A stretch of DNA of 64,000 bases from an uncultured bacterium (GTDB lineage Bacteria > Hydrothermota > Tepidihabitantia > B3-TA06 > CAYQJV01), in assembly GCA_964417925.1 (NCBI GenBank), contig CAYQJV010000001.1, positions 22,192 to 86,191 on the forward strand, written 5' to 3'. The position numbers and the translations under genes are program-made. This document shows positions 18,725-63,532 of this stretch, piece after piece. Under the pieces are notes generated by a model. It did no database searches, was not told the DNA's origin, and saw only the letters and a list, made by a program, of their open reading frames with translations. Position 1 is the stretch's first letter, and each line of letters starts with the position of its first letter.

Positions 18725-18773
18725 GTTACCTCCTTTTCTACTGGATTTTTACACAACAGTTTTTTATAACTTT

Positions 18774-21308
18774 TCACCTCCTTTCATATATGTTTACAAA
18801 TTTAACAAGCCTTCTTTCCTCTCCTTTCTCCATTTGAATGAAATATACTCCTGCGGCAAGGAAAATTGATTTTACATCTTCCCTATTTTTCAGTTTTCTC
18901 ACAATTCTTCCATTTGACGTATATATCTTAACACAATCATAATATTCCATAGCCTTCCGCAGAACATCATTTATCTTGCCCACGGAACTAAATATTATGC
19001 CTTTCTCTTCATATTGGTATGCAACCTCCTTTATTCCTGTAGAAATGGGTAACCCAAACTTAATTGTTATCAAATATTCTCCATACTCATAAAGGTCTAC
19101 AGAAAACTCTACCCTCTCTCCTTTAGCCAGTGAGCTTTTTGCCTTTACCAAGAATCCCTCAATGGCTTTACCTTCAGAAAAGGGAGGCACATTCTCAAAA
19201 TAAGAGATTGAATCTTTTACAATAACCTTTCCATCCTCACTTTTCAATACACCTAATAATGCATATACCTTATCAGGTGCAGAGTTTTTAATCAATAGAT
19301 TGAGTATCGCTGTTTCCCCGGGATCAAGCAATCCATTTTGATTTCCTCCTTCTAAGGTATCTGCTATTTCATAAGAATAATAGGTTATCTCTCCTTTTAA
19401 AGGAAATTTTATATCTCCGGTCACCACCACAGCATATGGTTGAGGACCAAAAGGAATGTTTTTACCTACTATCTTTACTATCCATGCACCTTCCTCAGGA
19501 ATCTCTATCCATACCAATTCCTCCACGTTGATCTCATCCCTTACCCCACCCTCAACAGAATATCCATTTTCAAAGTTATTACCGTAATAGACCTTTCCCG
19601 AAGGAGAGATAACTTCAAGGTCTAAGTCATTAACGAGCTGTTTTGAGGAAGAAAGTTCTGCGGGATAATCAGTCCAAACAAGTACTATTTTTAAAGGTAA
19701 ACCAGAAGATACTTCCACTGTAAAACTTTTTTCTTCATCGGTCTCTATACCTATGGTATCGTCTATTAAATAAAGTTTCCGCATATCCTCTGGGAAATAG
19801 AGCACGCTGTCAAGACATACCCTACCCCATCCACCTTTATTTGATGGCATAGAATACGAAGATGAAAGATGAACTGTAGAAGCCATTACCATTGCTTTCA
19901 ATAAAGCAGCAGAAGGAATAATCCGTTCTTCCTCATCGGGTACTCCACCTGGATAGTACCCATCTTTTAGATATTGATAAATCAATGCCGTAGCTCCTGC
20001 AACAGCAGGACATGACATACTGGTGCCAGACATTGAGTAATAATTCTCAGGACCTCCACCATAGGCTGAGATCAATACACCAGGAGCAACAACTGTGGGT
20101 TTTATTCTACCGTCATTGGTAGGACCAGGATCTGAAAACCCAGTAACCCTATCCGCACCACCACCATTAAAAGTAGCTCCCACTGTAATAATATCTTTAG
20201 CGGTTCCAGGAGGAGTAACCCTATAATCATCATTTCCTGCAGAAAAAAGAATAAGAAAATCTTTATGATTCCACATAAATTGATCGGTCTGATAACACTC
20301 AATATTGTATCCCCCTTCATATGCATTCCATCCCCAACTGTTGGAACTTAAAATTGCCCTTCCTGCTTCATTTCCTTCATAAGGCATTATATACATGTCA
20401 TTAAGATCATCCGGAGGATAAACACTATAACCTCCTGCACCTATGTCAACAAAATATATTTTTGCATCTTTTGCCATTCCATCATATGGAGCACTACCAT
20501 CTACATATTCATCATTGCCTGCTACAGTACACGCAGTATGCGTTCCATGATAATAGGCACTTGATGCATCTCCAAAGGATGCTAAGGAAGATCCAGGTTT
20601 ATATGCAATTATTTTTCTATGTTCAGGATAATCCCCCCAGTTCTCTATAGGATGTTCAGGATCTCTAAACATATTGTGATCTGTGTATATACCTGAATCA
20701 GAGGTACTTACGATAACCCCTTTACCTGTTATGCCTTTCTCCCATATTCTTCGGTTATCTTCTTCCCAGGTCTGCACCACCCATTGACATCGATTGTTAA
20801 ATAACACATGCTCTCTACATGGTTCAATCCATCTTATCCATTTAATCCTCGCTATCTTGTGTATATCTTCTCCATCTCCCTTAATTACAATAATCTTGTT
20901 CCATTGATTTATCGAAACCCTTAAAATTTCAAAACCTTTCTCTTGAAGAAAAGGAAGCACTTCATCTACCACTGCCTCTTCAAAAAGAAGAACCTTGAAA
21001 CTATCCACTACCGGTTTTATAATCTCGTGGTTATACTTCATTCTGCCTTCATAGGGAACGACCCCTGAAATATCCATATCCTTTAGAATCTCAGAAGTAA
21101 TCTTTCCATATACCAAGAAAGCGTTGTCTGGTATGTATCCTTTTACCTTTAATCCCTTGCTCTCCATTAGATTACGTGTATTTTTAAAAACTCCTTTCAC
21201 CTCAACAATGTAGTAATTTTCTTCATAAGTTATTTCAAATCTTCCAGTTATGGAAAGGTCTCCATTAAGGAGATGGAGAATAGAAAATAAAAAAAAGATG
21301 TTATTCAT
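18774..21308 (-). CDS. S8 subtilisin-like serine protease with T9SS-type C-terminal domain (paralog of the previous gene)
   Basis: Triad motifs VSTSDSGI, HGTHTACTVAG, GTSMSCPAVAG. C-terminus KIYTSNGRIVRKL…AAGVYFIQME…LVKFVNI is CTD-like. Signal peptide. Confidence 0.75.
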   Translation of the reverse strand: MNNIFFLFSILHLLNGDLSITGRFEITYEENYYIVEVKGVFKNTRNLMESKGLKVKGYIPDNAFLVYGKITSEILKDMDISGVVPYEGRMKYNHEIIKPVVDSFKVLLFEEAVVDEVLPFLQEKGFEILRVSINQWNKIIVIKGDGEDIHKIARIKWIRWIEPCREHVLFNNRCQWVVQTWEEDNRRIWEKGITGKGVIVSTSDSGIYTDHNMFRDPEHPIENWGDYPEHRKIIAYKPGSSLASFGDASSAYYHGTHTACTVAGNDEYVDGSAPYDGMAKDAKIYFVDIGAGGYSVYPPDDLNDMYIMPYEGNEAGRAILSSNSWGWNAYEGGYNIECYQTDQFMWNHKDFLILFSAGNDDYRVTPPGTAKDIITVGATFNGGGADRVTGFSDPGPTNDGRIKPTVVAPGVLISAYGGGPENYYSMSGTSMSCPAVAGATALIYQYLKDGYYPGGVPDEEERIIPSAALLKAMVMASTVHLSSSYSMPSNKGGWGRVCLDSVLYFPEDMRKLYLIDDTIGIETDEEKSFTVEVSSGLPLKIVLVWTDYPAELSSSKQLVNDLDLEVISPSGKVYYGNNFENGYSVEGGVRDEINVEELVWIEIPEEGAWIVKIVGKNIPFGPQPYAVVVTGDIKFPLKGEITYYSYEIADTLEGGNQNGLLDPGETAILNLLIKNSAPDKVYALLGVLKSEDGKVIVKDSISYFENVPPFSEGKAIEGFLVKAKSSLAKGERVEFSVDLYEYGEYLITIKFGLPISTGIKEVAYQYEEKGIIFSSVGKINDVLRKAMEYYDCVKIYTSNGRIVRKLKNREDVKSIFLAAGVYFIQMEKGEERRLVKFVNIYERR

Positions 21309-51339: not shown

Positions 51340-51413
51340 AAAATATATTAGTCAAATATCCATTAACACCACTCCATGCCTTAACCATTCCACTCTCTCA
51401 AACCCTCAAAAAG

Positions 51414-51431
51414 TGTAACATTTATGTTACA
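51414..51431. promoter_or_regulatory. UAS-1: perfect 18-bp palindrome TGTAACATTTATGTTACA (predicted enhancer-binding-protein site)
   Basis: Inverted repeat TGTAACA-N4-TGTTACA with C-rich 5' flank ccctcaaaaag. Confidence 0.6.
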
Positions 51432-51486
51432 TTTAAATACAGTCTAAGCCTCATAATTACAGATACATACAAAAACCCTTCAAAAG

Positions 51487-51504
51487 TGTAACATTTGTGT
51501 TACA
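51487..51504. promoter_or_regulatory. UAS-2: palindrome TGTAACATTTGTGTTACA (one central substitution)
   Basis: Same half-sites. Centre is 73 bp from UAS-1. Confidence 0.6.
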
Positions 51505-51558
51505 TTCAAAGGCAATTTAAGTAATGTAGTTACAAAGCATACAAATACATTTAAAAAC

Positions 51559-51576
51559 TGTAACATTTATGTTACA
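51559..51576. promoter_or_regulatory. UAS-3: palindrome TGTAACATTTATGTTACA
   Basis: Centre is 72 bp from UAS-2 and about 80 bp upstream of the -24 element. Confidence 0.6.
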
Positions 51577-51646
51577 TTTTTGTTATATTCTGAAAAGCTT
51601 TCAATTTTTAAGTATAGGTATTTCATAACTTAATTTTTAGAATCTT

Positions 51647-51662
51647 TGGCATGTTTTTCGCT
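51647..51662 (+). promoter_or_regulatory. Predicted sigma-54 promoter (TGGCAT-N5-TCGC; -24 GG / -12 GC)
   Basis: GG and GC are at consensus spacing. The 29-bp block aatctttggcatgtttttcgctatataat is identical to the block at 63289-63317. Confidence 0.6.
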
Positions 51663-51711: not shown

Positions 51712-51739
51712 TTGACAAAAGAATAAAAAAATATAAAAT
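51712..51739 (+). promoter_or_regulatory. Sigma-70-like promoter (TTGACA-N16-TAAAAT) inside the sigma-54 5'UTR, upstream of A1
   Basis: TTGACA at 51712-17, TATAAAAT at 51732-39. SD AGGAAG. The same element recurs at 54809-36 before A2. Confidence 0.45.
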
Positions 51740-51752
51740 TAGGAAGTGTAAA

Positions 51753-52163
51753 ATGAGAGGAGTAATAAAAATATTGGTTTTAGGTATGGTGGTGATGGTT
51801 ATAGCCCAGCCTTCCTATGATGAGAGGTGGGAAGGAGAGGCAGAAGGCACAGTAGTGGTGGATGGAGATACAATTGAGCCATGGGCTCACTGGACTGCCT
51901 GGGTTGAATATGATTATGTGCCTGGTAAGGATACTATTTGGGGAGTATGGCAGGATACGGAGACAGATGCATATGGAAATATATATGGTCATAGAAATGA
52001 GTCTGATGGTTCCGTTTCTGGAACATGGGATTGTGCTAATTATAATGTCTCTGGAGGATGGTCCGGAACCGCCACTGGTGGCGTAGGTAGTAAAGGCTCA
52101 GGAAAGTGGTGGATAAATGGGGAAGATAGTACAGGATGGTGGGAAGGTGAAAGAAAGGAGTAA
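51753..52163 (+). CDS. Small secreted Trp/Asp/Gly-rich protein A1 (136 aa, unknown family)
   Basis: Signal peptide MRGVIKILVLGMVVMVIAQP. Mature part is rich in W, D, G, E (WEGEAEG, GTWDC, WWINGEDSTGWWEGE). First 64 residues are identical to A2. Confidence 0.7.
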   Translation: MRGVIKILVLGMVVMVIAQPSYDERWEGEAEGTVVVDGDTIEPWAHWTAWVEYDYVPGKDTIWGVWQDTETDAYGNIYGHRNESDGSVSGTWDCANYNVSGGWSGTATGGVGSKGSGKWWINGEDSTGWWEGERKE

Positions 52164-52168
52164 AAATA

Positions 52169-52206
52169 AAGAGGGGGAGAGTTAAAAGGCTCTCTCCCTC
52201 TTTTTA
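52169..52206 (+). terminator. Intrinsic terminator/attenuator between A1 and B1
   Basis: AAGAGGGGGAGAG-ttaaaagg-CTCTCTCCCTCTT (12-13 bp stem, one G·U) followed by TTTTT. Confidence 0.6.
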
Positions 52207-52242
52207 AGGAGGGAATATGATGATGTTTTTACTTTTTTTTCA

Positions 52243-54795
52243 ATGATTATAAAAGATGATTTCCTTATATCTAAGGATAATCCAGTGCCATCTTCAAAAT
52301 CAAAGGTCTATGGGAAAGGTAGCAAAAAGGGAATCACAATTGTATGGCAAGATGAAAGGCTTGGAGGTGCATTTATAAAAGGAGATTATGCAGAAATTTT
52401 TTTCCAGAGTTTTGATTCCTTGAGGATGAAAATAGGAGGTAATAGAAGACTCGACATTACCCCTGAATGGAGGGTAAGAGTAGTGGGTGGTATAGGATAC
52501 TTTGATAAGGATGTTTCATTTCTCTGGAATACGGGAGATGGATTGTATTTTTGTAAGTATTCTAATAAAGGGGAACTTAAAATAAAAAGAAAAAGGATAA
52601 TCAGTGATGAAGAGTTTTATGGAAACTTGCGTCCTGATAAACCTGTTGGTTATTCAACTAATGAGATAAATAAAGGATTGGTATGCTTTACTGTGAGTTG
52701 TAAAAATGAAGGAGATAGAGTTTATGCTCTCTGTATCAATTCATGTGGTGAAGTTGTTCTTCCCATATTTACTGTAGATAGTATGCTTCCCGGAACCCCT
52801 TATTTCTGGAATGCAAAAGGTGCTATTTCAGATAGGGCATTTGGAGTTATTTATTGGGAAGGTGGGGTTGAGTATCGGATTAAGATATATACTCTTGATG
52901 GAAAATTTATTGATAAAATAATTTTGGGAAAGGGAGAGGGAACTCCCTATATTGAGATGGTAATGGATACCATTTATGTTGTGTGGTGTGAGTATCCTGA
53001 GATGAGCGTGTGGCTTGAGAAGTATGTTTTGAGAGAAGGTGGGGTTTCAAGGGAGTTTAAGGAGATGTTAAGCAAGGATGCATTGTGGTCTTCAAACATG
53101 CAGGTTGCTTTTGAATGGTGGGATAGGGATGAAGGACCTGTGGAAATTCCTTCTCTGGTTGTGATGACCGCATGGCATGACTGGGATGAAAAGAAGATAA
53201 AGTGCAGGGTATATTCAGGAGCAACTGGTGGTGAAATTGCAGGTGGTTCTTTTTCTCCCTCCGTTTCTGATACTGCAACTCCTGACTTTTCCCTTTTCTA
53301 TGGTGCAGGTAGGTTTCACATAGCATATGTTGACGACAGTAACCGGGTGATTGATGTTGCAACATATCTTACTCCTGATACCGAGCTTGTGTTTGCAGGT
53401 CCTCAGGTTGTAAGTGATGACAGCTGTGGTGAAGGATGGAGTGATGCAAGGCTTGCGGTTAACAGTAATGGAGATTTTGCAATTCTTTACTGGTCACCGG
53501 AAGGAAAGGCATTTGTAAAGTTTTTTGACAGAGATGGAAATCAGATATCCAAAGAGATAGATATTTCTACTCTCTTCACAACAAGATGTCCTTCAATGAT
53601 AGCTCCAATGATAGCAATGGATAATGAAAGAAATTTAATGGTAATAGCTTTGGAGGATTGGCTGGAGACTCTTCCGCCTATAAGGATAGAGTTTTATGGA
53701 TTGATTGTTAAGCCTTCAGGAGAAATAAAGAGGTTCAATATAGGGAGGTATCCTGAGGAGCTATACATAGGCGATAGTTATCTCACCTGTAATTCAAAAG
53801 GGGATTTCCTTTTCCTGTGGGATGAATTTCCATTTGGTTCTGAGGAAGAGAGAAATGTTATAAAGGGCAGGTTTTTTGATGCAAATGGAAGGCCAAAGAC
53901 AGATGTTTTTACTCTCAAGTTTCCTCTTGGCCCTATACACCCCACTGGAGCTGATGTTTTTGAGAATGGAGGGGCGGTTGTGGCGGCTGCAATGTCAAAT
54001 GCTGCACGCTCATGGGCAGTTGTGATAGACAGCACCGGTAATCCTTTGACAGAGTTAATAGAGTTTATACGCACCTATCCCGTTATTGCCTGTGATGGGA
54101 GGAATAGATGGGTGATGGCGGGATTAAATGTAAAGCCAAACTACATGGTTTTTGATAGAAAGGGCAATGTGATAAAGGATTTGCAGGTGATAGATGCATA
54201 TACATTTCCTTGGCCTTCTTTCTTTGGTCCTCGCCAGTTGTGGTGTGATATGGATACATCAGGGAGGTTTATAATCTACTGGACAGATTTTACTGAGGAT
54301 GCAAATCCTGATGTAAGGGCACAGATATTTTCAAGGGATGGTGACCCGGTATCAGAGATATTTGAGGTTCATAATCCTGATGCATTTCCTTATGAGTATC
54401 AGCTTTCTACCTGGCAGGGACTTGGAGTGACATCGGATAGGATTTATTTTATGTGGCTTGACAATCGCAGGATAAAGGGTTGGGACATATATGCAAAGGT
54501 AACGGACTGGGAGTATCCAACAGGAATTAAAGAAAAGAGAGAAAGTAAAAACTTAGATATAGAGTATTTGGGACCCCATATTTTAATAAGGTTTTCCCTT
54601 TCTTTTCCTCAGAATTTATCTATCAAACTCTACGATGTTTCAGGAAGAGTGGTAAAAAGCATCTTTTTAAAGGCAAAGAAAGGAGAAAATACAATTGAGA
54701 TAGAAAAAAATTTCCCTCCTGGAGTGTATTTTTTGAGAATAGAAGGGAAGGAAAAAGAATATAGCACTAAGATTCTCATTGTAAAAGGGAAATGA
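52243..54795 (+). CDS. Large beta-propeller-repeat protein B1 with T9SS C-terminal sorting domain. The 5' end is frame-disrupted relative to its SD-positioned ATG at 52217
   Basis: C-terminus LSIKLYDVSGRVVKSIFL…PGVYFLRIEG…KILIVKGK matches the Por_Secre_tail pattern. Internal repeats GDF-hhh-W…(I/V)xGRFFDxNGxP. SD AAGGAGGG at 52207-14 serves the ATG at 52217, whose frame stops at 52244 unless the T8 run (52233-40) gains one T. Confidence 0.7.
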   Translation: MIIKDDFLISKDNPVPSSKSKVYGKGSKKGITIVWQDERLGGAFIKGDYAEIFFQSFDSLRMKIGGNRRLDITPEWRVRVVGGIGYFDKDVSFLWNTGDGLYFCKYSNKGELKIKRKRIISDEEFYGNLRPDKPVGYSTNEINKGLVCFTVSCKNEGDRVYALCINSCGEVVLPIFTVDSMLPGTPYFWNAKGAISDRAFGVIYWEGGVEYRIKIYTLDGKFIDKIILGKGEGTPYIEMVMDTIYVVWCEYPEMSVWLEKYVLREGGVSREFKEMLSKDALWSSNMQVAFEWWDRDEGPVEIPSLVVMTAWHDWDEKKIKCRVYSGATGGEIAGGSFSPSVSDTATPDFSLFYGAGRFHIAYVDDSNRVIDVATYLTPDTELVFAGPQVVSDDSCGEGWSDARLAVNSNGDFAILYWSPEGKAFVKFFDRDGNQISKEIDISTLFTTRCPSMIAPMIAMDNERNLMVIALEDWLETLPPIRIEFYGLIVKPSGEIKRFNIGRYPEELYIGDSYLTCNSKGDFLFLWDEFPFGSEEERNVIKGRFFDANGRPKTDVFTLKFPLGPIHPTGADVFENGGAVVAAAMSNAARSWAVVIDSTGNPLTELIEFIRTYPVIACDGRNRWVMAGLNVKPNYMVFDRKGNVIKDLQVIDAYTFPWPSFFGPRQLWCDMDTSGRFIIYWTDFTEDANPDVRAQIFSRDGDPVSEIFEVHNPDAFPYEYQLSTWQGLGVTSDRIYFMWLDNRRIKGWDIYAKVTDWEYPTGIKEKRESKNLDIEYLGPHILIRFSLSFPQNLSIKLYDVSGRVVKSIFLKAKKGENTIEIEKNFPPGVYFLRIEGKEKEYSTKILIVKGK

Positions 54796-54808
54796 AAAGG
54801 AAGAAAAA

Positions 54809-54836
54809 TTGACAAAAAATAAAAAAAATATAAAAT
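54809..54836 (+). promoter_or_regulatory. Sigma-70-like promoter (TTGACA-N16-TAAAAT) for A2-B2. No UAS or sigma-54 element in this copy
   Basis: TTGACA at 54809-14, TATAAAAT at 54829-36. Duplicate of the 51712-39 element. Confidence 0.45.
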
Positions 54837-54840
54837 AGGG

Positions 54841-55254
54841 GTGGTGAGAAGAGTAATAAAAATATTGGTTTTAGGTATGGTGGTAATGGTTATAGCCCAG
54901 CCTTCCTATGATGAGAGGTGGGAAGGAGAGGCAGAAGGCACAGTAGTGGTGGATGGAGATACAATTGAGCCATGGGCTCACTGGACTGCCTGGGTTGAAT
55001 ATGATTATGTGCCTGGTAAGGATACTATCTGGGGTATATGGTGGGATGATGAGGGAGATACAGGGAGGATATATGGACACCGAGATGAAGCAAACGACTC
55101 TGTTTTTGGAACATGGGATTGTATCAACTGTGATGTATCTGGGGAATGGGAGGGAAAGGCAAATTATCCTACGACAGATAATGCACAAGGAGAGTGGTGG
55201 GTAACAAGTGGTGGAACTGGGGATGGCACATGGAGTGGGCATAGAGAAGAATAA
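54841..55254 (+). CDS. Small secreted Trp-rich protein A2 (paralog of A1; GTG start, or GTG at 54844)
   Basis: Identical signal peptide and N-terminal half to A1. C-terminal half diverged (IWWDDEGDTGRIYGHRDE…GEWWVTSGGTGDGTWSGH). Confidence 0.7.
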   Translation: MVRRVIKILVLGMVVMVIAQPSYDERWEGEAEGTVVVDGDTIEPWAHWTAWVEYDYVPGKDTIWGIWWDDEGDTGRIYGHRDEANDSVFGTWDCINCDVSGEWEGKANYPTTDNAQGEWWVTSGGTGDGTWSGHREE

Positions 55255-55260
55255 AAACAT

Positions 55261-55282
55261 GGGAGCCGGAAATCCGGCTCCC
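55261..55282 (+). other. GC-rich hairpin without U-tract between A2 and B2 (stability/processing element rather than terminator)
   Basis: GGGAGCCGG-aaat-CCGGCTCCC followed by ATAAAAAGGAGG (SD of B2). Confidence 0.45.
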
Positions 55283-55300
55283 ATAAAAAGGAGGTAAAAA

Positions 55301-57898
55301 ATGATATTTTTATTGTTTTTAATAGTTATAAAAGATGATTTCCTGGTATCTAAGGATAATCCATGCCATTCTTTTAAGTGTCAGGTTTTTGGAAAAGGAG
55401 AGGTGGATGGTTATACCATTGTATGGAGAGATGGGAGAACCGGAACAATTAATTTACCGAGTTTTTATGAGGAAATTTTCTTTCAGTGTTTTGATTCAAA
55501 TAGAGTTAAAATTGGGGATAACACAAGACTTGGGACATCTTCTGAGTGGAAGACAAGATATCTCGGGGGCATAGGATACTTCAAAGATGCAGTATCATTT
55601 ATATGGAATGAAGGATCCGGGATGGGGCAGGCAGATATTCAGGATACCATGGGAACCATTTACTTCTGTAAGTATGATAACAATAGGAATATGGTGATAA
55701 AACCTAAAAAACTCATTGATCATAATGATATTCGTATTTATCCATTTTATCCAGTACATTATTCTACCAATGGATGTAACAGAGGACTGGTATGTTTTGG
55801 GGAGATTGGAGAAAAGAAAACAAACTTTTATGCCTTGGTTATTGATTCTTGTGGAGAAATTCTTCTTCCTTTATTTGTTGTGGATACGGTTTCTGGGTCC
55901 CATCCAATTGTGAGGGGAGCAATATCAGACAGGTATTTTGCAATATTTTATTCCACCACTTTCAATCCTGCTATTTCCAGGATGAAGGTCTATTCAATTG
56001 ATGGAAAGGAAATTGATAGGATAGTTTTTGGAGAAAGCTTCAAGGCTTCTGCTATTAAAGTATTTCTTGACACAATTTATGTTGTTTGGAGTCCGTATTT
56101 TTATGATAGGGGTGAAGAGCTATGGTTGGAGAAGTATGTGGTTAAGGATGATGGTGTTGAGAGGGTATTTCAGGAGATTTTGATGAATAGATATCCAGCA
56201 AATATGCAGGTTGCTTTTGGATGGTGGGATAGGGATGAAGGACCTGTGGAGGTTCCTTCTCTGGTTGTGATGATCGCGTGGCATGACTGGGATGAGAAGA
56301 AGATAAAGTGCAGGGTGTATTCAGGAGCAACTGGTGGTGAAATTGCAGGTGGTTCTTTTTCTCCCTCTGTTTCTGATACTGCAACTCCTGATTTTTCTCT
56401 TTTCTATGGTGCAGGAAGGTTTCACATAGCATATGTTGATGACAGTAACCGGGTGATTGATGTTGCAACATATCTTACTCCTGATACCGAGCTTGTGTTT
56501 GCAGGTCCTCAGGTTGTAAGTGATGATACCTGTGGCAGGGGATGGAGTGATGCAAGGCTTGCAGTAAACAGCAATGGAGACTTTGCAATTTTTTACTGGT
56601 GCTATTATTATGACAGTCTGCGTGCCTTTGTGAAATTTTTTGATCAAAATGGAGATGAACTTTCAAAAGAGATTGAGGTTCCTCTTCGTTTCACAAGGTT
56701 TACCAATGTAACGACGGCTATGGATGATAGGAGAAATTTGATGATAATACATGCTCCTGAGGTTCTGGAAAAAAATGAGAATGGTCGTCCCACAAGGATA
56801 AGGTTTTATGGGGTTATTGTTAATCCCTCTGGAGAGGTCAAAAAGTTTACCATAGGGGAGTATCCACCTGATGAGTTTTACATGTCCTGGCATAGTTATG
56901 TTGCATGTAATTCTAAAGGGGATTTTCTTATACTCTGGTGTCATTTTCCTGGAGGGGATGGTCCTGAAAATGTTATAAGGGGCAGGTTTTTTGATGCAAA
57001 TGGAAGACCGAAAACAGATGTTTTTACTCTCAAGTTTCCCATAGGTCCCATAATGCCCACTGGGGCTGTTGTTTTTGAGGATGGAGGGGCGGTTGTAGGA
57101 GCTGCACTGTCAAATGCTGCACGCTCATGGGCGGTTGTGATAGACAGCATCGGTAATCCTTTAACAGAATTAATAGAGTTTATACGCACTTATCCTGTTA
57201 TTGCCTGTGATGGGAGGGATAGATGGGTGATGGCAGGATTAGATGTAAAGCCAAACTGCATGGTTTTTGATAGAAAAGGAAATGTGATAAGGGATTTGCA
57301 GGTGATAGATGCATATACATTTGCCTGGCCATCCCCAATTTTCCCTCAGCAGTTATGGTGTGATATGGATACATCAGGGAGGTTTATAATTTACTGGACA
57401 GATTTTACCGAGGATGCAAATCCGGATGTCAGGGCACAGATATTTTCAAGGGATGGTGACCCGGTATCAGAGATATTTGAGGTTCATAATCCTGATGCAT
57501 TTCCTTATGAGTATCAGCTTTCTACCTGGCAGGGACTTGGAGTGACATCGGATAGGATTTATTTTATGTGGCTTGACAATCGCAGGATAAAGGGCTGGGA
57601 CATATATGCAAAGGTAACGGACTGGGAGTATCCAACAGGAATTAAAGAAAAGAGAGAAAGTAAAAACTTAGATATAGAGTATTTGGGACCCCATATTTTA
57701 ATAAGGTTTTCCCTTTCTTTTCCTCAGAATTTATCTATCAAACTCTACGATGTTTCAGGAAGAGTGGTAAAAAGCATCTTTTTAAAGGCAAGGGAAGGAG
57801 AAAACAGGGTTGAAATAAAAAAGGATTTTCCCCAGGGAGTGTATTTTTTGAGGATAGAAAAAGGGAAAGTTTTACACAAAAAAATAATAATATTGTAA
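55301..57898 (+). CDS. Large beta-propeller-repeat protein B2 with T9SS C-terminal sorting domain (paralog of B1)
   Basis: SD AAGGAGGT 6 nt before the ATG. Short hydrophobic N-terminus MIFLLFLIVI. C-terminal 310 aa are almost identical to B1, including the CTD. Confidence 0.75.
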   Translation: MIFLLFLIVIKDDFLVSKDNPCHSFKCQVFGKGEVDGYTIVWRDGRTGTINLPSFYEEIFFQCFDSNRVKIGDNTRLGTSSEWKTRYLGGIGYFKDAVSFIWNEGSGMGQADIQDTMGTIYFCKYDNNRNMVIKPKKLIDHNDIRIYPFYPVHYSTNGCNRGLVCFGEIGEKKTNFYALVIDSCGEILLPLFVVDTVSGSHPIVRGAISDRYFAIFYSTTFNPAISRMKVYSIDGKEIDRIVFGESFKASAIKVFLDTIYVVWSPYFYDRGEELWLEKYVVKDDGVERVFQEILMNRYPANMQVAFGWWDRDEGPVEVPSLVVMIAWHDWDEKKIKCRVYSGATGGEIAGGSFSPSVSDTATPDFSLFYGAGRFHIAYVDDSNRVIDVATYLTPDTELVFAGPQVVSDDTCGRGWSDARLAVNSNGDFAIFYWCYYYDSLRAFVKFFDQNGDELSKEIEVPLRFTRFTNVTTAMDDRRNLMIIHAPEVLEKNENGRPTRIRFYGVIVNPSGEVKKFTIGEYPPDEFYMSWHSYVACNSKGDFLILWCHFPGGDGPENVIRGRFFDANGRPKTDVFTLKFPIGPIMPTGAVVFEDGGAVVGAALSNAARSWAVVIDSIGNPLTELIEFIRTYPVIACDGRDRWVMAGLDVKPNCMVFDRKGNVIRDLQVIDAYTFAWPSPIFPQQLWCDMDTSGRFIIYWTDFTEDANPDVRAQIFSRDGDPVSEIFEVHNPDAFPYEYQLSTWQGLGVTSDRIYFMWLDNRRIKGWDIYAKVTDWEYPTGIKEKRESKNLDIEYLGPHILIRFSLSFPQNLSIKLYDVSGRVVKSIFLKAREGENRVEIKKDFPQGVYFLRIEKGKVLHKKIIIL

Positions 57899-57968
57899 GT
57901 GAAATGTTGAAAAAGATATAAATATACAGTGACATAGTAAGAAAGTTCAAAAATTCTTCACACTCAAT

Positions 57969-57996
57969 TTGCATTTTTAGAAAAAATATGTATACT
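57969..57996 (+). promoter_or_regulatory. Sigma-70-type promoter (TTGCAT-N16-TATACT) for the small-ORF + kinase-EBP operon
   Basis: TTGCAT at 57969-74, TATACT at 57991-96. SD AAGGAGG at 58003-09, ATG at 58015. Confidence 0.45.
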
Positions 57997-58014
57997 TTCA
58001 AAAAGGAGGCTGTA

Positions 58015-58332
58015 ATGGTTTCATTACCGAAAAGTACTGTATACGGGGATGGTGTTAAAATCAACTCTTTACATGCAATACAGCTTCTTGACATGGAAAT
58101 TACATCTGTTAAAAGAAAAAGACGTGTAAAAAGTTCTTTGAGCACAATGTTCTTTATCAACCTCCTCTACAAAAAAGAATGCAATAAAATTACTGTCCAG
58201 ATGGATCCTGTAATAACTCACAAGAGTTATGACTACATAAATCATTGCTATAGAAACAGCAATAATAAAAAAGATAGTTTCCAAAAATTAAAGAAAATTT
58301 ACAACGAAGTAATAAACTTAACTAACAGGTGA
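58015..58332 (+). CDS. Small hypothetical protein (105 aa) translationally coupled to the kinase-EBP gene
   Basis: Strong SD then ATG at 58015 (the ORF track's 57988 start lacks an SD). Stop TGA overlaps the downstream GTG start (GTGA at 58329-32). No recognisable motif. Confidence 0.45.
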   Translation: MVSLPKSTVYGDGVKINSLHAIQLLDMEITSVKRKRRVKSSLSTMFFINLLYKKECNKITVQMDPVITHKSYDYINHCYRNSNNKKDSFQKLKKIYNEVINLTNR

Positions 58333-61300
58333 GCAGGTATAAAATAGTAGAAAAGATAGGGGAGGGAAATTACACCGTAGTATATAGAGCATATGACATC
58401 CTTTCTCAGAAGGAAGTGGCATTAAAAACTCTAAAGAACAAAGGAATTGATCCCGTGATTCTTAAAAGAGAGTATGTATTTTTAAAAAAATGCTCCCATC
58501 CTTATATAGTAAAGGTATATGAAGCAGGGTACTTAAAAGACACTCCTTATTTTACAATGGAGTACATAAAAGGAGAGGATATAAAGCAGTATCTAAAAAA
58601 GAAACGAAACGAGCAAAATTTCTGGACAATTTTTTCCACGCTCTTTTTAAAAATAGTTGCAGGAGTATCCCACTTTCACTTTAAAGGAATAATACATGGC
58701 GATCTCAAACCAAACAATATTCTTGTAGATGAACAGGACAATGTGAAAATAATAGATTTTGGTTTTGCCTTATTAAAAGGAGAAAAACCAGAGGGAACTA
58801 CAGTAGTATACACTGCTCCTGAAATCCTTAAAGGAAACCTTGATTATAGAGCAGACATTTATGCTATAGGGATGATAATGTACGAAATTATAGAAGGTAA
58901 AGATTTATTTACTCAACTCACCCCTGTAAATATTGTAAAAGAAAAGTTAAAATTTATTCCTTCTTTTTCAAAACCTATACCTTCTGAACTTAAAAATCTT
59001 GTGAAAAATATGCTTTCTCCAGAACCTTTCTTCAGACCGGATGCAAAAGAAATATACAGCACACTTTCAAAACTATCTGCAGAAAAAATAGAGATACAAT
59101 CCCAAGAGGAAATGACCACAATGCCAGTGGTAGGAAGAGAAGAACTAATAGATACTGCTTTAAAAGAGGGTAACAAAATAATATTCTATGGAGACCATGG
59201 TTATGGAAAATCAACTTTATTAAAAGAAATATCTTTTAGGGCTTGGCTTAAGAAAAAAAGGGTATTTGAAATCAATAAAGATAAAGAATACCTGCTTCTT
59301 GAATATTTAAAAACTCACTATAAAGTTAAAGCAACATCCAGGGAACATCTGTTTGCAGATATTGTATCCTCCCTTGAGAAAGAGTACGACATCTTCATAT
59401 TTGATGACCTACATCTATACTCTGAAGATGATATTGAGTTTGCAAGGTATCTTTATCTTTCCACAAAGAAGAATGTAATATTCTCAGCATTACCTTTAGA
59501 GTCCTTAAAAAAGAAGTTTGAAGAACCAGGCAGAATAGCGATAAAAAATATTCCTTCATTATCACCTAAAGAAATAAAAACTCTTGTATATATTCTTTTC
59601 CCAACCCTATCTCAGAAAGAGGAACTTACAGAAGAGCTCTATAGAATAACAAAAGGAATACCTCTGCTTTTAAAAAGCATTATTGAGATATTTTTAAAAG
59701 AAAAAATCCTTAAAAAAGAAGAGGATAAATTTATTTTTAATAGAGAGAAAATCAAAGGGTTAGAACTACCGAAAACTGTAAAAGAATTTGTAAAGAATTC
59801 ATTCAAAGAATTAAATGAAGATGAAAAAAACTTCTTACTTGCTGTCCACCTATTAAAAGACTTTGCATCCTTATCCAACATCTATCAAATGGTACAACTA
59901 AAAGAGGATAAGATATATTCCATAGCAGAAAGTTTAAAAATAAAAGAACTTATAAAAATAATCCAAAAAAACAACACAATTATCTACACACTTTCAACTG
60001 GAATTTATATCCCCTTTATAAAAAAACTAAAAAGTTATAAAGACCTTTTGGAAAAAAGTATAAAAATAATTGAAAAGGAAAACAGCACCAAAAAAATATA
60101 TCTTCTTGCAGAATACAACCATATTCTCGGTAAAAAAGAAAAGGCAGTTGATTATCTCTACACTGCAGTAAATACGGCAAGAAAAACCTCCCTCCTTTGT
60201 GAAGCAAAGAAATTTATAGAAATACTCATCCAGAACTATCCTATAGAAGACATACCAAACCCTTGCAAATTTTGTATTGTAGCCGGAGACATCTATCTAC
60301 TGCTTCATGAATTAAAAAAGGCTCAGACATTTTTCTCAATATCATTTTCCTTCTGCCCTCAAGAAAGAAAAAGTGATATTCATCACAGGATTGCTCAAAC
60401 AATGTTTTATCAGGGAAATATCAAAGATGCAAAACTGGAAACAATAAAGGGATTAAAATATGCAAAAGATAAACATGAATTATTGAATTTTCTATCATGG
60501 CTTTACATCTTTGATGGTGAAAAGCAAAGAGCAGAAAGAATCTTAAACCATGTAATAGCACATACAAATAACAAAGAGATACTTTCAAATGCATACTATA
60601 ACCTTGCAATACTTTACAAAAAATATAACCAATTTATTAAATGTGCTACGGTGCTTGGGAAAAGCATAAAATATCTAAAGGAAAAAGACATCTATGGTTA
60701 TGCGTTAAGACTTGAAATTGCTTGTGAAATGCTACTTCAGAAGGGATTTTTTAGAAATGCAGAAAGAATACTTTTAAAAATAAAAAATATTTGGGGAAAA
60801 ATTAAAAACTTAAATAAATATACATCAACTTTAATAAACATGGGAAGAATAAAAAGATTTGAAAATCCCAAAAAAGCACTTGAATACTTCCATCAAGCAG
60901 AAATCATGAGTCTCAAAATAAAAGATTATGAACTTTTTGCAAGTGCCCTTCTTAACTCTGCATTCTTATTTGAAACATACGGAAGAACTGAACAGGCTCT
61001 TGAAAGCATAGGTAAACTTCTTACATACGAACAAAAAATTTCAGAAGAGAGATTTTGTAAAGGAGTTTTTTATTATACAAAGTATCTACTTTTAACGAAT
61101 CAGATAGAAAAAGCAGAAGAATTTCTTAAAACCATCAAAAGGAAAGACTCTTCTTGGTGCCTTTTATCACAGACATTGGTTCTTTTTGAAAAAAATGATG
61201 ATAAAAGATTCAGAAAGGAGATGGTAGAAATACTATTAAGGGAAAATACCGAAGAAGAAGTCTCTGAAGCTCTTAATATTCTTTTTGAATATCATTACAA

Positions 61301-63149
61301 TAAAAATGATTTGGAAAGATGTAAAACCATCCTTGAAAGGATTAAAAAGATATCATATGCGAAAAAAAATCCTTTTAAAGAAGTTGAGATAATGTTAAAA
61401 ACAGCAATCCTTTTAAAAGATAAAAAACTACTTGAAGAAACAATAAAAAGAGCAGAAAGAATTCACTATTTCAATGCAAAACCCCTTGCCCTATCTATAC
61501 TTGGAAAGATATATTATGAGAAAGGAGATTACTTGAAGGCATATAAACATCTAAAAGAAGCAAGGGAAAATTTTGAGAGAATAGGAATGATAAATACCGC
61601 AGAAAAGATAAAAAAATATGAAGAAAAAGCAAAGGAAAAAAGTATAGAAATCCAAGTACCGGAAAGGAAATACTTAGATACACTTGAAAGAATAAGCGCT
61701 GTGGTAAAGGACTATTTTGGAAAAGATGAGTTTTTCCTTGAACTTTTAAACATTCTGATAGAAGCAACCTCTGCAGAAAGAGGAATGGTCATGATAGGGG
61801 AGAACCAAGAAAATCTATACTGCGTGGGAACTACAAATATAGATGAAGTTACTTATGTCGATGCAACCGCATTTTCAAAGACTGTATTAAAACATGTAAG
61901 AGAAGGTAAAAGAGGGATATATACAGAAGATGCAACAAAAGATCCCAGGTTTAAAGATGCAGAAAGTGTCAAACTAAAAGAGATAAAGTCAATTCTATGC
62001 GTTCCATTAATGGCAAAAGATGAAGTTATAGGAGTTCTCTATCTTGATAGTTCACTCAAAAAAGGACTCTTTACAGAAGAAACTCTAAAATTCATGGAGT
62101 CTGTATCAAATATAATAGGCACATTTGTGTATACCTCTTATACCGCAGAGAAAAAGTTTAAAGAACTTGAAAGGATAAAACTAAAAACTCAAGAAATAGT
62201 AATAGGAAGATCAAGAAAAATAAAAAGGATATTCAAGGAAATCCAACAAATTGCTCAAACAGATTCAAACATCCTCCTTATAGGAGAAACAGGAACAGGT
62301 AAAGGGGTAATTGCACGGTTAATTCATGAAAAGAGCAGGCGGAGCGAATATCTCTTTCAGTATATAAACTGTGGAGCAATTCCCTATGAACTATTTGAAG
62401 CAGAACTATTTGGATACAAAAAAGGAGCCTTCACAGGTGCAAGAGAAACAAGAAAGGGCTTACTTGAAGAGGCTCATAAAGGAACCGTTTTTTTGGATGA
62501 AATAGCAAATATTCCAATATCTGTCCAGGCAAAGTTGCTGGATGTAATAGAGCGAAAAAAAATAAGAAGGCTTGGAGAAAATATAGAAAGGGATATTGAT
62601 GTAAGGTTTATATTTGCAACAAACAGAGATTTAGAACAAGAAATAGAAAAGGAAAAGTTCAGAAATGACCTGTATTACCGAATTTCAACAACTGTTATTG
62701 AAATTCCACCACTAAGAGAAAGAAAAGAAGATATTCCTATATTTGTAGATTTCTTCATAGATAAATTTTCAAAAGAACTTAACAAAAATATAAAGGGAGT
62801 TTCACAAGAAGCCATGGAAATACTATTAAAATACCACTGGCCAGGAAATATAAGAGAGCTTTCCAATGTAATTGAACGGGCTGTAATTATGGCAGATAAA
62901 GAAACCATAGGCAAAAATCACATAGATAGAGGAATAATTGAATCAGTAATACCACCAGCCCCTCTAAAAATTGAAACAGAAAAAGTAAAGAAAGAGATGA
63001 TAATAAAGGCACTTCAACTCCACAAAGGTAACATCAAAAAAACAGCCCAATACCTGCACATAACCCGTCAACACCTCTCCAGGCTTTTAAAAAGATACAA
63101 CATTGACCCAGCCCAGTATAAACACCCCCAAAACCCCCAAAAAGTGTAA
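58329..63149 (+). CDS. Multidomain one-component regulator: Ser/Thr protein kinase + P-loop NTPase + TPR array + GAF + sigma-54 activator AAA+ + Fis-type HTH (1606 aa)
   Basis: Kinase motifs VALKTL, HGDLKPNN (58695-718), DFG, APE. P-loop GDHGYGKST (59190-216). Long TPR-like helical repeats. GAF-like block LLNILIEATSAERGMVMIG…VLYLDS. Sigma-54 AAA+ Walker A GETGTGKG (62283-306), GAFTGA (62424-41), Walker B VFLDEI, WPGNIRELSNVIERA. C-terminal HTH KTAQYLHITRQHLSRLLKRY. Confidence 0.8.
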   Translation: MSRYKIVEKIGEGNYTVVYRAYDILSQKEVALKTLKNKGIDPVILKREYVFLKKCSHPYIVKVYEAGYLKDTPYFTMEYIKGEDIKQYLKKKRNEQNFWTIFSTLFLKIVAGVSHFHFKGIIHGDLKPNNILVDEQDNVKIIDFGFALLKGEKPEGTTVVYTAPEILKGNLDYRADIYAIGMIMYEIIEGKDLFTQLTPVNIVKEKLKFIPSFSKPIPSELKNLVKNMLSPEPFFRPDAKEIYSTLSKLSAEKIEIQSQEEMTTMPVVGREELIDTALKEGNKIIFYGDHGYGKSTLLKEISFRAWLKKKRVFEINKDKEYLLLEYLKTHYKVKATSREHLFADIVSSLEKEYDIFIFDDLHLYSEDDIEFARYLYLSTKKNVIFSALPLESLKKKFEEPGRIAIKNIPSLSPKEIKTLVYILFPTLSQKEELTEELYRITKGIPLLLKSIIEIFLKEKILKKEEDKFIFNREKIKGLELPKTVKEFVKNSFKELNEDEKNFLLAVHLLKDFASLSNIYQMVQLKEDKIYSIAESLKIKELIKIIQKNNTIIYTLSTGIYIPFIKKLKSYKDLLEKSIKIIEKENSTKKIYLLAEYNHILGKKEKAVDYLYTAVNTARKTSLLCEAKKFIEILIQNYPIEDIPNPCKFCIVAGDIYLLLHELKKAQTFFSISFSFCPQERKSDIHHRIAQTMFYQGNIKDAKLETIKGLKYAKDKHELLNFLSWLYIFDGEKQRAERILNHVIAHTNNKEILSNAYYNLAILYKKYNQFIKCATVLGKSIKYLKEKDIYGYALRLEIACEMLLQKGFFRNAERILLKIKNIWGKIKNLNKYTSTLINMGRIKRFENPKKALEYFHQAEIMSLKIKDYELFASALLNSAFLFETYGRTEQALESIGKLLTYEQKISEERFCKGVFYYTKYLLLTNQIEKAEEFLKTIKRKDSSWCLLSQTLVLFEKNDDKRFRKEMVEILLRENTEEEVSEALNILFEYHYNKNDLERCKTILERIKKISYAKKNPFKEVEIMLKTAILLKDKKLLEETIKRAERIHYFNAKPLALSILGKIYYEKGDYLKAYKHLKEARENFERIGMINTAEKIKKYEEKAKEKSIEIQVPERKYLDTLERISAVVKDYFGKDEFFLELLNILIEATSAERGMVMIGENQENLYCVGTTNIDEVTYVDATAFSKTVLKHVREGKRGIYTEDATKDPRFKDAESVKLKEIKSILCVPLMAKDEVIGVLYLDSSLKKGLFTEETLKFMESVSNIIGTFVYTSYTAEKKFKELERIKLKTQEIVIGRSRKIKRIFKEIQQIAQTDSNILLIGETGTGKGVIARLIHEKSRRSEYLFQYINCGAIPYELFEAELFGYKKGAFTGARETRKGLLEEAHKGTVFLDEIANIPISVQAKLLDVIERKKIRRLGENIERDIDVRFIFATNRDLEQEIEKEKFRNDLYYRISTTVIEIPPLRERKEDIPIFVDFFIDKFSKELNKNIKGVSQEAMEILLKYHWPGNIRELSNVIERAVIMADKETIGKNHIDRGIIESVIPPAPLKIETEKVKKEMIIKALQLHKGNIKKTAQYLHITRQHLSRLLKRYNIDPAQYKHPQNPQKV

Positions 63150-63162
63150 CATTTATGTTACA
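63145..63162. promoter_or_regulatory. UAS-4: palindrome TGTAACATTTATGTTACA overlapping the regulator's stop codon
   Basis: TAA stop (63147-49) is inside the left half-site. C-rich flank cccccaaaaag. Confidence 0.6.
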
Positions 63163-63217
63163 TTTTGAGGCGGTCTAAGTTACGTAATTAAGTATATATA
63201 CAAATACCCCCAAAAAG

Positions 63218-63235
63218 TGTAACATTTATGTTACA
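63218..63235. promoter_or_regulatory. UAS-5: palindrome TGTAACATTTATGTTACA
   Basis: Centre is 73 bp from UAS-4 and about 70 bp upstream of the -24 element. Confidence 0.6.
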
Positions 63236-63294
63236 TTTTGAAAAAACCCCAATTTTTAAGTTACGGTGTTTTTTGACTTAATTTTTAAAATCTT

Positions 63295-63310
63295 TGGCAT
63301 GTTTTTCGCT
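63295..63310 (+). promoter_or_regulatory. Predicted sigma-54 promoter (TGGCAT-N5-TCGC), second copy
   Basis: 29-bp block identical to 51641-51669. SD AAGGAGGT and ATG at 63371 lie downstream. Confidence 0.6.
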
Positions 63311-63370: not shown

Positions 63371-63532
63371 ATGAAAAAGTTGTTAGCATTGCTTGTTTTT
63401 GTTGGTGGTTTGCTTTTTGCTGATCCGCCTTCCCCTTGTGGTGGACCTGGAGATGATCCTCCTGATCCTACACCACCACCTCCTATTCCTATAGACGTAG
63501 AAAATATTGTTGAGGTGATACCGGGGGAGTAA
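63371..63532 (+). CDS. Small secreted Pro/Asp-rich peptide (53 aa precursor)
   Basis: Strong SD. Signal peptide MKKLLALLVFVGGLLFA. Mature DPPSPCGGPGDDPPDPTPPPPIPIDVENIVEVIPGE. The ORF track's 63323 start lacks an SD and sits at the predicted TSS. Confidence 0.55.
   Translation: MKKLLALLVFVGGLLFADPPSPCGGPGDDPPDPTPPPPIPIDVENIVEVIPGE

Follow-up and report, generated by a model that had tools for sequence, protein, structure and literature searches.

Concerted evolution by gene conversion is known from several groups of paralogous genes for outer-surface proteins, including babA/babB and sabA/sabB of Helicobacter, the opa genes of Neisseria and the tpr genes of Treponema. Here we describe a comparable locus in a 64,000-nt stretch (the window) of contig CAYQJV010000001.1, which belongs to assembly GCA_964417925.1 of an uncultured, free-living sediment bacterium of the candidate division WOR-3. 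The locus consists of two tandem cassettes, each with a gene for a small tryptophan-rich exported protein (A) followed by a gene for a large cargo protein (B) of the type IX secretion system (T9SS). As in the bab/sab, opa and tpr genes, old diverged paralogues carry near-identical tracts in which even silent sites agree, sequences cluster by genome inside the tracts, conserved ends flank variable exposed regions, and mosaic alleles are found in the population. In contrast to those systems, what is repeated is a pair of genes together with their promoter and the hairpin between them, the cargo proteins are propellers and not outer-membrane barrels, the organism is not a host-associated pathogen, and no positive selection was detected. 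With a probability of about 0.7, the locus represents an ancient tandem A-hairpin-B pair, in which three tracts were repeatedly overwritten by gene conversion, whose modules were shuffled between strains, and whose exported products are under sigma-54 control. The evolutionary mode is a known one, acting here on uncharacterised proteins of an uncultured phylum.

Both cassettes lie on the plus strand in the order A1-B1-A2-B2. Unit 1 (51753-54795) comprises A1 (51753-52163, 136 aa) and B1 (52243-54795, 850 aa), and unit 2 (54841-57898) comprises the A1 paralogue A2 (54841-55254, 137 aa, GTG start) and B2 (55301-57898, 865 aa, with a good ribosome-binding site (RBS) and an ATG start). The two units are joined by direct repeats spaced by ~3.1 kb. 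A tblastn search revealed no third copy of A or B inside the window. A third cassette (P0002/P0005) was found on a 24-kb contig that could not be assigned to this genome or another.

Global alignment of unit 1 with unit 2 gave an overall identity of 74%, which was strongly patchy, with many indels outside three tracts. The sliding identity was 97-100% at 51760-51940, 92-98% at 53092-53450 and 82-100% at 53850-54680, compared with 45-70% in the remainder. Tract 1 (51753-51940, partner 54844-55031) covers the signal peptide and ~43 mature residues of A, with 4 mismatches in 188 nt and a synonymous divergence (dS) of 0-0.08. Tract 2 (53092-53450, partner 56198-56556) corresponds roughly to blades 6-7 of the B propellers, with 20 mismatches in 359 nt and dS of 0.1-0.25. 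Tract 3 (53850-54680, partner 56965-57795) extends approximately from blade 10 to blade 14 and into the sorting domain, of which it includes the first half. It is composite: a stretch of 82-95% identity is followed by 361 nt in which only one position differs (54316-54676, with exact runs of 164 and 196 nt), the identity dips to 77% at 54178-54237, and dS of its parts ranges from 0 to 0.6. The longest run in 2000 column shuffles had a mean of 24 nt and a maximum of 51 nt, and the observed exact runs were 196, 164 and 143 nt. The sharp switch between near-identity and deep divergence exceeds chance. The preliminary description of this DNA had claimed a tandem duplication of a two-gene cassette with patchy identity and had proposed a pairwise alignment as a check; open reading frames (ORFs), the ~3.1-kb direct repeats and the alignment all agreed with it, and tract 1 bore out its statement that the 5' halves of the A genes are nearly identical and the 3' halves diverged. 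The coordinates of the two near-identical blocks that it gave for B were reproduced within a few bases, but the second block, drawn there to the stop codon, stops short of it, as identity between the units falls to 50-80% over the terminal ~115 nt of B (54680-54795).

To describe the silent sites, dS and the ratio of nonsynonymous to synonymous divergence (omega) were calculated in codon-wise Nei-Gojobori windows between the two units. In the divergent modules the proportion of synonymous differences was 0.5-0.78 and dS ran from 0.7 to saturation, compared with dS of 0-0.25 in the tracts; saturation was observed in the 3' half of A and in blades 1-5 and 8-10 of B. Inside the tracts, sub-tract dS values fell at ~0, 0.05, 0.2 and 0.3-0.6, and these several distinct levels indicate conversion events of different age. 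Four-fold degenerate sites were identical at 165 of 189 positions (87%) in the tracts and at 37 of 92 (40%) outside (Fisher p=7e-16). It could be argued that purifying selection alone maintained the blocks as constrained parts of two old paralogues, without any recombination, since they match plausible constrained parts (signal peptide, propeller junction and T9SS sorting domain) and omega was lowest there. Nevertheless, constraint on the protein would not keep four-fold sites identical, nor would it give exact runs of 143-196 nt or a clustering by source that is confined to the blocks, and an Rfam scan of 51-64 kb detected no RNA family that could constrain the nucleotides. We regard this explanation as hardly credible.

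The clustering by source was obtained from related contigs. L001-L006 are contigs assembled from metagenomes of Guaymas Basin sediment and of hydrothermal vents, whereas L007 came from a separate metagenome scan; all sequences, including the window, are short-read metagenome assemblies. A word-indexed homology search with B returned only B1, B2 and one relative at 84%, and that with A returned 3-4 clusters. The scan of genome contigs with B2 gave no match, and the metagenome scan added L007 only. Quartets were formed from unit 1 (W1), unit 2 (W2), L003 and L004, the latter two being from the same sample. Informative sites in the B region 52243-53090 favoured orthology, that is, W1 with L004 and W2 with L003, by 159 to 13 (56+103 vs 12+1). 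At 51753-51935, all informative sites supported within-source grouping instead, W1 with W2 and L004 with L003 (12:0). Within-source grouping was also favoured in tract 2 (5:3), and by 11:1 in its core at 53201-53340. The identity at 53171-53270 was 96% for W1/W2 and 90% for L003/L004, vs 78-86% for cross-source pairs, and the paralogues of another sample were 90-94% identical in the tracts vs 51-67% in the flanks. The tracts are exactly where the signal flips from orthology to clustering by source, and concerted evolution by gene conversion is thereby supported. Recurrent gene conversion over the tandem pair, as proposed in the preliminary description, was hence upheld by dS levels, four-fold sites and the quartet switch.

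The related contigs also contained evidence on the tandem arrangement. L003 and L007 run from the C-terminus of one B through A into the next B, and L004 and L006 open with the end of a B gene, that is, its final codons and stop. The junction between a B stop and an A start was assembled independently in four contigs from three samples, and tandem arrays are present in at least three other samples. Each cassette in L003, L004 and L006 is preceded by a ~200-nt spacer with a sigma-54 promoter; by comparison, only ~45-55 nt separate the type-2 cassette from the preceding B in the window and in L007. Certain module types are common to strains at 96-100% identity, as seen for W1 and L004 at 52692-53077, and for W2 and L007 across A2 and the N-terminal third of B2. 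A further type, the third, of both the A C-terminus and the B N-terminus occurs in L003. Up to ~52700, L006 does not differ from L003; beyond this it is 96-100% like B2 of the window, with the switch near 52750. L007 is of the B2 type over A and the first third of B and of the B1 type at 53451-53850 (56:2:2), and its type switch falls inside tract 2.

Homogenised ends of B paralogues were also found in another genome (GCA_964356135.1). The proteins P0012 (L088, 818-3436) and P0014 (L089, 114-2684) are 39% identical overall, and their body DNA is 40-55% identical; by comparison, their last ~100 codons, including the sorting domain, showed a DNA identity of 88%, with third positions at 72-80%. 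C-terminal homogenisation is thus a recurrent event among paralogues of the B family.

These data bear on the possibility that the duplication is recent, in which case the tracts would show its true young age and the divergent segments would have been imported later from alleles of other strains by homologous recombination. Exchange of modules between strains does occur, as the module types common to strains indicate, and the inter-type mosaics L006 and L007 would be expected as well. However, at least three independent samples (L003, L004, L006, L007) already contain both cassette types or junctions between cassettes, tract dS lies at several levels (0, 0.05, 0.2 and 0.3-0.6) and not at one age, and the other genome homogenises the C-terminus of paralogues that are only 39% identical. 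Given the shared junctions, the several dS levels and the second genome, an old duplication with repeated conversion is the simpler account, and a recent duplication followed by import was considered unlikely.

As the data are short-read assemblies of metagenomes and metagenome-assembled genomes (MAGs) throughout, the two-copy structure or the perfect tract identity might also have resulted from collapse, expansion or chimeric joining of strain variants. The contigs L005 and L006 stop at identical residues where tract 2 begins, and L004 breaks off slightly further on, inside tract 2. Such breaks of independent relatives within the conserved block confirmed the earlier warning that the locus is an assembly hazard; moreover, the type switch of L007 lies exactly in tract 2. 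L089 is a 2.9-kb contig holding the P0014 gene only, which suggests that the assembly breaks at repeats. Against an artefact, the two units differ by ~26% with many indels and unique sequence flanks every tract on both sides. The four independently assembled B-stop/A-start junctions and the difference between tracts and flanks in the paralogues of the other sample also speak against it. An assembly artefact was thus judged quite improbable.

The preliminary description had called the pair diversifying and likened it to polymorphic-toxin families. Pairwise omega was below 1 in every window (0.05-0.93), including the divergent segments for which it had asked for dN/dS, and values of 0.7-0.9 were reached only in the C-terminal third of A. 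With omega below 1 everywhere and dS saturated in the divergent segments, the term diversifying was not supported. The toxin analogy also failed, because it is a conserved T9SS domain that forms the C-terminus of B, families of toxins, Rhs or immunity proteins were absent, and the small partner is located upstream and carries a signal peptide. A diversity-generating retroelement was ruled out as well, as the tract mismatches were mostly transitions and occurred at all four bases without adenine bias. Literature searches on WOR-3 and T9SS, gene conversion and T9SS, and sigma-54 and T9SS returned nothing relevant.

The assignment of B as T9SS cargo, already made in the preliminary description, was verified by the type A sorting domain, which scored over the curated cut-offs in both proteins: 49.3 bits in B1 and 41.1 bits in B2 for TIGR04183 (cut-off 23), and 40.8 and 36.1 bits for PF18962 (cut-off 27). 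Like other type A cargo (TIGR04183/PF18962), B has a C-terminal sorting domain of ~70 residues behind a large secreted beta-rich passenger. In contrast to them, its passenger has no Pfam family and belongs, as a very divergent member, to an uncharacterised family of ~55-residue propeller repeats. No NCBIfam family was found in the body either, and PADLOC gave no match for A or B. The structure model of B2 (pLDDT 79.5, pTM 0.75) showed two seven-bladed beta-propellers and a C-terminal beta-sandwich. The architecture of B1, which is 69% identical to B2, was read from this model as ~14 blades, in two seven-bladed propellers, followed by the sorting domain. An exhaustive profile search with B yielded 570 remote relatives at E ≤ 0.001, mostly of 850-950 aa and with 7-13 matched repeats. 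Nine of the remote relatives were subjected to a Pfam scan, and a T9SS sorting domain was detected in five of them, over the curated cut-off in three. The closest remote relatives, P0012 and P0014, have the mature N-terminus of B, (V/I)IKDD(F/C)LV, right after a signal peptide of their own, and share with B the C-terminal blade ...W.DNRR.KGWDIYAKVTDW. In B2 and its relatives a short hydrophobic N-terminus precedes the mature start IKDDFLV, and by inspection that of P0012 is a classical signal peptide.

As assembled, B1 starts with MIIKDDF, has no in-frame start upstream and no signal peptide, a point that the preliminary description had not noted. The RBS-proximal ATGs belong to a mini-ORF on the plus strand, ATGATGATG (52217-52246; MMMFLLFFQ and stop), which is out of frame with B1. 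It has nine codons, its TGA overlaps the B1 ATG as ATGA, and a T8 tract (52233-52240) is situated between the two frames. Adding one T to the T8 tract gives MMMFLLFFSMIIKDDF, which is collinear with MIFLLFLIVIKDDF of B2 and MIEIFLFLMPLKDDF of L004. Read as RNA, the T8 tract forms the slippery heptamer U_UUU_UUU, and a stop follows two codons later. The B1 start may be due to an error in the homopolymer, to a frameshift of recent origin, to phase variation or to slippage, either during transcription or of the ribosome (-1). The B1-type gene start is intact in L004 and L005. For A2, it was found that the GTG start is overlapped by its own Shine-Dalgarno sequence (54837-54846). In L007 the A2-type gene begins with a normal ATG, but one nucleotide is deleted within its signal peptide (L007 521-575), so the copy-2 A genes look impaired in two strains, by different lesions.

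Such gene starts are reminiscent of a dedicated variation system with silent donors, similar to pilE/pilS, in which B2 and A1 would be expressed, B1 and A2 would be partly silenced, and T8 would act as a slippage switch. The RBS-proximal ATGs of B1 that are out of frame across the heptamer, the poor start of A2 and the signal-peptide deletion in L007 are in line with this idea, and the ORFs of the two seemingly impaired genes are still full-length, with omega below 1. Unlike the silent cassettes of pilE/pilS and vlsE, however, B1 without an in-frame start and A2 with its poor start are both full-length genes behind promoter-like sites of their own and not truncated donors. Also, the intact B1-type starts of L004 and L005 do not fit, and a homopolymer error or a recent inactivating mutation would explain B1 equally well. 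A silent-donor system therefore seemed rather unlikely.

The A1 product consists of the signal peptide MRGVIKILVLGMVVMVIA and a 118-aa mature part, which is acidic and contains 12 Trp residues; A had been described as a small Trp-rich secreted protein, and this was confirmed. The A sequence had no match in Pfam or NCBIfam, nor, by profile, among PDB sequences. Its model is an eight-stranded soluble beta-barrel (pLDDT 79, with 74-93 per 10-residue block in the mature part). The top fold matches included de novo transmembrane barrels and OmpA. A transmembrane barrel was ruled out on inspection of the sequence, because the strands are short, on one face every other residue is charged or polar, and the protein is strongly acidic. 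Similar folds are those of the C-terminal barrels of NHBA, TbpB, LbpB, fHbp and hemophilin and of the avidin/streptavidin family, all of them small eight-stranded soluble barrels. In contrast to these proteins, A has no sequence kinship, lipobox cysteine or handle domain, and in contrast to the NHBA, TbpB, LbpB, fHbp and hemophilin barrels its partner is a T9SS cargo and not a Slam or TonB system. The signal peptide ends in VIA, followed by QPS, with no lipobox cysteine. Because of the missing lipobox and the absence of Avidin or TbpB_B_D sequence matches, placing A in the avidin family or among the Slam-dependent lipoproteins was rejected, and the likeness is one of fold only.

The two genes of each unit are separated by a GC-rich stem-loop on the plus strand. 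That between A1 and B1 (52168-52205) has 16 pairs and -25.5 kcal/mol and is followed by U5, and it was predicted to be an intrinsic terminator or attenuator. That between A2 and B2 (55259-55284) has 11 pairs and -22.9 kcal/mol, and its sequence is unrelated to the unit-1 hairpin. GC-rich hairpins between A and B were obtained by folding in three allele types and in L088 (-21 to -25.5 kcal/mol), and were seen by sequence inspection in L090 and L091. Conservation thus concerns the structure, since the stems are not related in sequence. In unit 1 and L004 the stem is followed by a U-run, but in unit 2 it is not. In L088, L090 and L091, the remote B homologues (20-25% identity) are preceded directly and on the same strand by a small gene without a Pfam family. 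The small product of L088 is 32% identical to A and has the same Trp/Gly ladder, and those of L090 and L091 matched the A profile with probabilities of 98% (E 3e-14) and 91%, respectively. A-hairpin-B is thus an old module that is conserved in distant WOR-3 relatives. The A-like gene of L091 (3303-4000), upstream of the B homologue P0018, is interrupted; GEWYYWNG...NFWGE motifs continue in 130 nt past the called stop, which indicates a frameshift or a pseudogene.

Sigma-70-like promoters had been described in both units, and the sequence TTGACA-N16-TAAAAT with 11/12 matches was indeed present on the plus strand at 51712-51739 and 54809-54836. The one of unit 1 is kept in L001, L003, L004, L006 and L007, and lies within the 5' untranslated region predicted for transcripts from a sigma-54-type promoter. 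This promoter, TGGCATGTTTTTCGCT (51647-51662, plus strand), has -24 GG and -12 GC elements and is located 90 nt before A1; neither it nor the palindromes ahead of it had been mentioned in the preliminary description. The sigma-54 pattern alone was not above chance, with 5 matches in the window vs 2.9 expected; the identical 16-mer occurs again at 63295-63310. A perfect TGGCAC-N5-TTGCT precedes A in L001-L006, and the -12 element of the window is TCGC rather than TTGC. L088 has TGGCAC-GGGAA-TTGCT after GGACA-N4-TGTCC palindromes, and L090 has sigma-70-type promoters instead. No sigma-54 promoter was found before unit 2, because the B1-A2 spacer is only 45 nt long.

Three exact palindromes, TGTAACA-N4-TGTTACA, were found in the 413-nt region upstream of A1 at 51414-51431, 51487-51504 and 51559-51576 (plus strand, spacing 73 and 72 nt), the third one ~70 nt before the sigma-54-type promoter, and are candidate activator sites. 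The window contains 5 exact matches, compared with 0.31 expected at ≤2 mismatches, and all of them lie either here or just after the activator gene. At 51394-51580 the palindromes were seen to be inside direct repeat units of ~73 nt (AAACCC..AAAAGTGTAACATTTATGTTACATTT...), so the upstream activator region itself seems to have been enlarged by tandem duplication. The activator gene downstream of B2 (58329-63149, plus strand) encodes a regulator of 1606 aa with a Ser/Thr kinase, a P-loop NTPase, tetratricopeptide repeats (TPR), a GAF domain, a sigma-54 AAA+ domain (Sigma54_activat, 2e-66) and an HTH_8 domain, and GAFTGA is present in its translation. Its PADLOC matches were to RtcR/PspF-like AAA-HTH models (C-terminal AAA+/HTH) and to mad6, PD-T4-6 and MkoA (kinase); as they cover single domains only, the regulator is not a defence-system call. 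A second regulatory module (63145-63310, plus strand) sits right after the regulator stop, with palindromes at 63145-63162 and 63218-63235 (73 nt apart) and the identical 16-mer at 63295-63310. It lies ahead of a 53-aa Pro-rich ORF (63371-63532) with the signal peptide MKKLLALLVFVGGLLFA followed by DPPSPCGGPGDDPPDPTPPPPIPI..., and more small ORFs continue up to the window end.

The arrangement resembles NtrC-class sigma-54 systems in the -24 GG/-12 GC spacing, in the inverted repeats 70-250 nt upstream, and in the adjoining activator with a GAFTGA AAA+ domain and a Fis-type helix-turn-helix. In contrast to that class, the activator is a fusion of 1606 aa in which the N-terminal Ser/Thr kinase, P-loop NTPase, TPR and GAF domains replace the receiver domain. 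We infer a sigma-54 regulon that is probably driven by the adjoining activator, with the palindromes as its putative sites. One could further imagine a regulated surface-variation device, in which the activator would switch on the A/B cassettes, A1 and B2 would be export-competent, B1 would be gated by T8/U_UUU_UUU and A2 by its crippled start. The tracts would then be recombination hinges that shuffle the blades and the co-varying half of A between expressed and semi-silent copies. Such a device was considered doubtful.

The window represents core chromosome, as DnaE, SecA, SecDF, PheST, PBP1 and PdxJ are encoded. Genes for T9SS machinery were not seen in its 64 kb. SecA was 61-70% identical to that of candidate division WOR-3 MAGs, one of them from Guaymas, and 88% identical to that of another MAG. 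At 39-40%, the cassettes are slightly richer in GC than the flanks (31-37%). The gap of 430 nt between B2 and the activator gene (57899-58328) showed no terminator-like hairpin after B2, and a 114-aa ORF at 57988-58332 had no Pfam or PADLOC match. Elsewhere in the window, two adjoining large Peptidase_S8 genes on the minus strand (15131-21308) encode proteins of 1197 and 844 aa. The C-terminus of the second gave a weak, T9SS-tail-like tblastn match to the B2 sorting domain (E 0.019), and a Pfam scan at E ≤ 1e-5 detected no Por_Secre_tail in it. Possibly, these genes form a further tandem pair of paralogues with secreted products. PBP1 beside an S8 peptidase is a synteny common to the window and L088.

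Based on these results, the following course of events is proposed for the ancient pair. The data show that the copies are old and diverged, and that the 5' part of A, blades 6-7, and blades 10-14 with half of the sorting domain were overwritten several times, at different ages, by non-reciprocal homologous recombination. The conserved tracts may double as crossover points that re-assort the divergent modules among strains, giving rise to mosaic alleles and varying copy number. Transcription would start from the sigma-54 promoter, activated through the three palindromes by the kinase-fused enhancer-binding protein, and each cassette would have its own, weaker sigma-70-type promoter in addition. 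The hairpin might attenuate read-through, leading to an excess of A over B. B would be exported by Sec and then by the T9SS, to serve as a binding propeller that is either displayed at the cell surface or set free, and A could be its periplasmic or surface partner. The invariant tracts would fit the shared machinery (Sec/T9SS recognition and the propeller junction), and the variable blades would face the environment.

Several points weigh against this interpretation. That L003 and L004, on which the quartets depend, come from a single genome is unproven; the chimeric B of L007 may be a true crossover or an assembler jump; and the tract identity could have been inflated by consensus building. 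No sign of positive selection was seen in the pairwise omega windows, in which dS was saturated where relevant, and diversification would be read from allele diversity alone. B1, which has no start or signal peptide, and A2, which has a poor start, may not be expressed normally. Control by sigma-54 is not universal, with unit 2 lacking the promoter and L090 having the sigma-70 type. The function of B as a surface-displayed binding propeller with the small barrel A as partner was deduced from modelled folds, which are generic, and is to be taken as provisional.

To this known mode the locus adds a conserved A-hairpin-B module, a predicted circuit under sigma-54 and a B1 gene with a frameshifted start. 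In practical terms, short-read assemblies break or are wrongly joined at this repeat, and gene models and strain comparisons need long reads. The predicted regulatory circuit of kinase-fused sigma-54 activator, palindromes and promoters is directly testable. For WOR-3, a phylum without a cultured model, the locus provides a statistically solid case of secreted surface proteins that evolve in concert and whose modules are shuffled. It hints that free-living sediment bacteria also hold variable surface repertoires, which might be kept, for example, under pressure from phages, predators or substrates.

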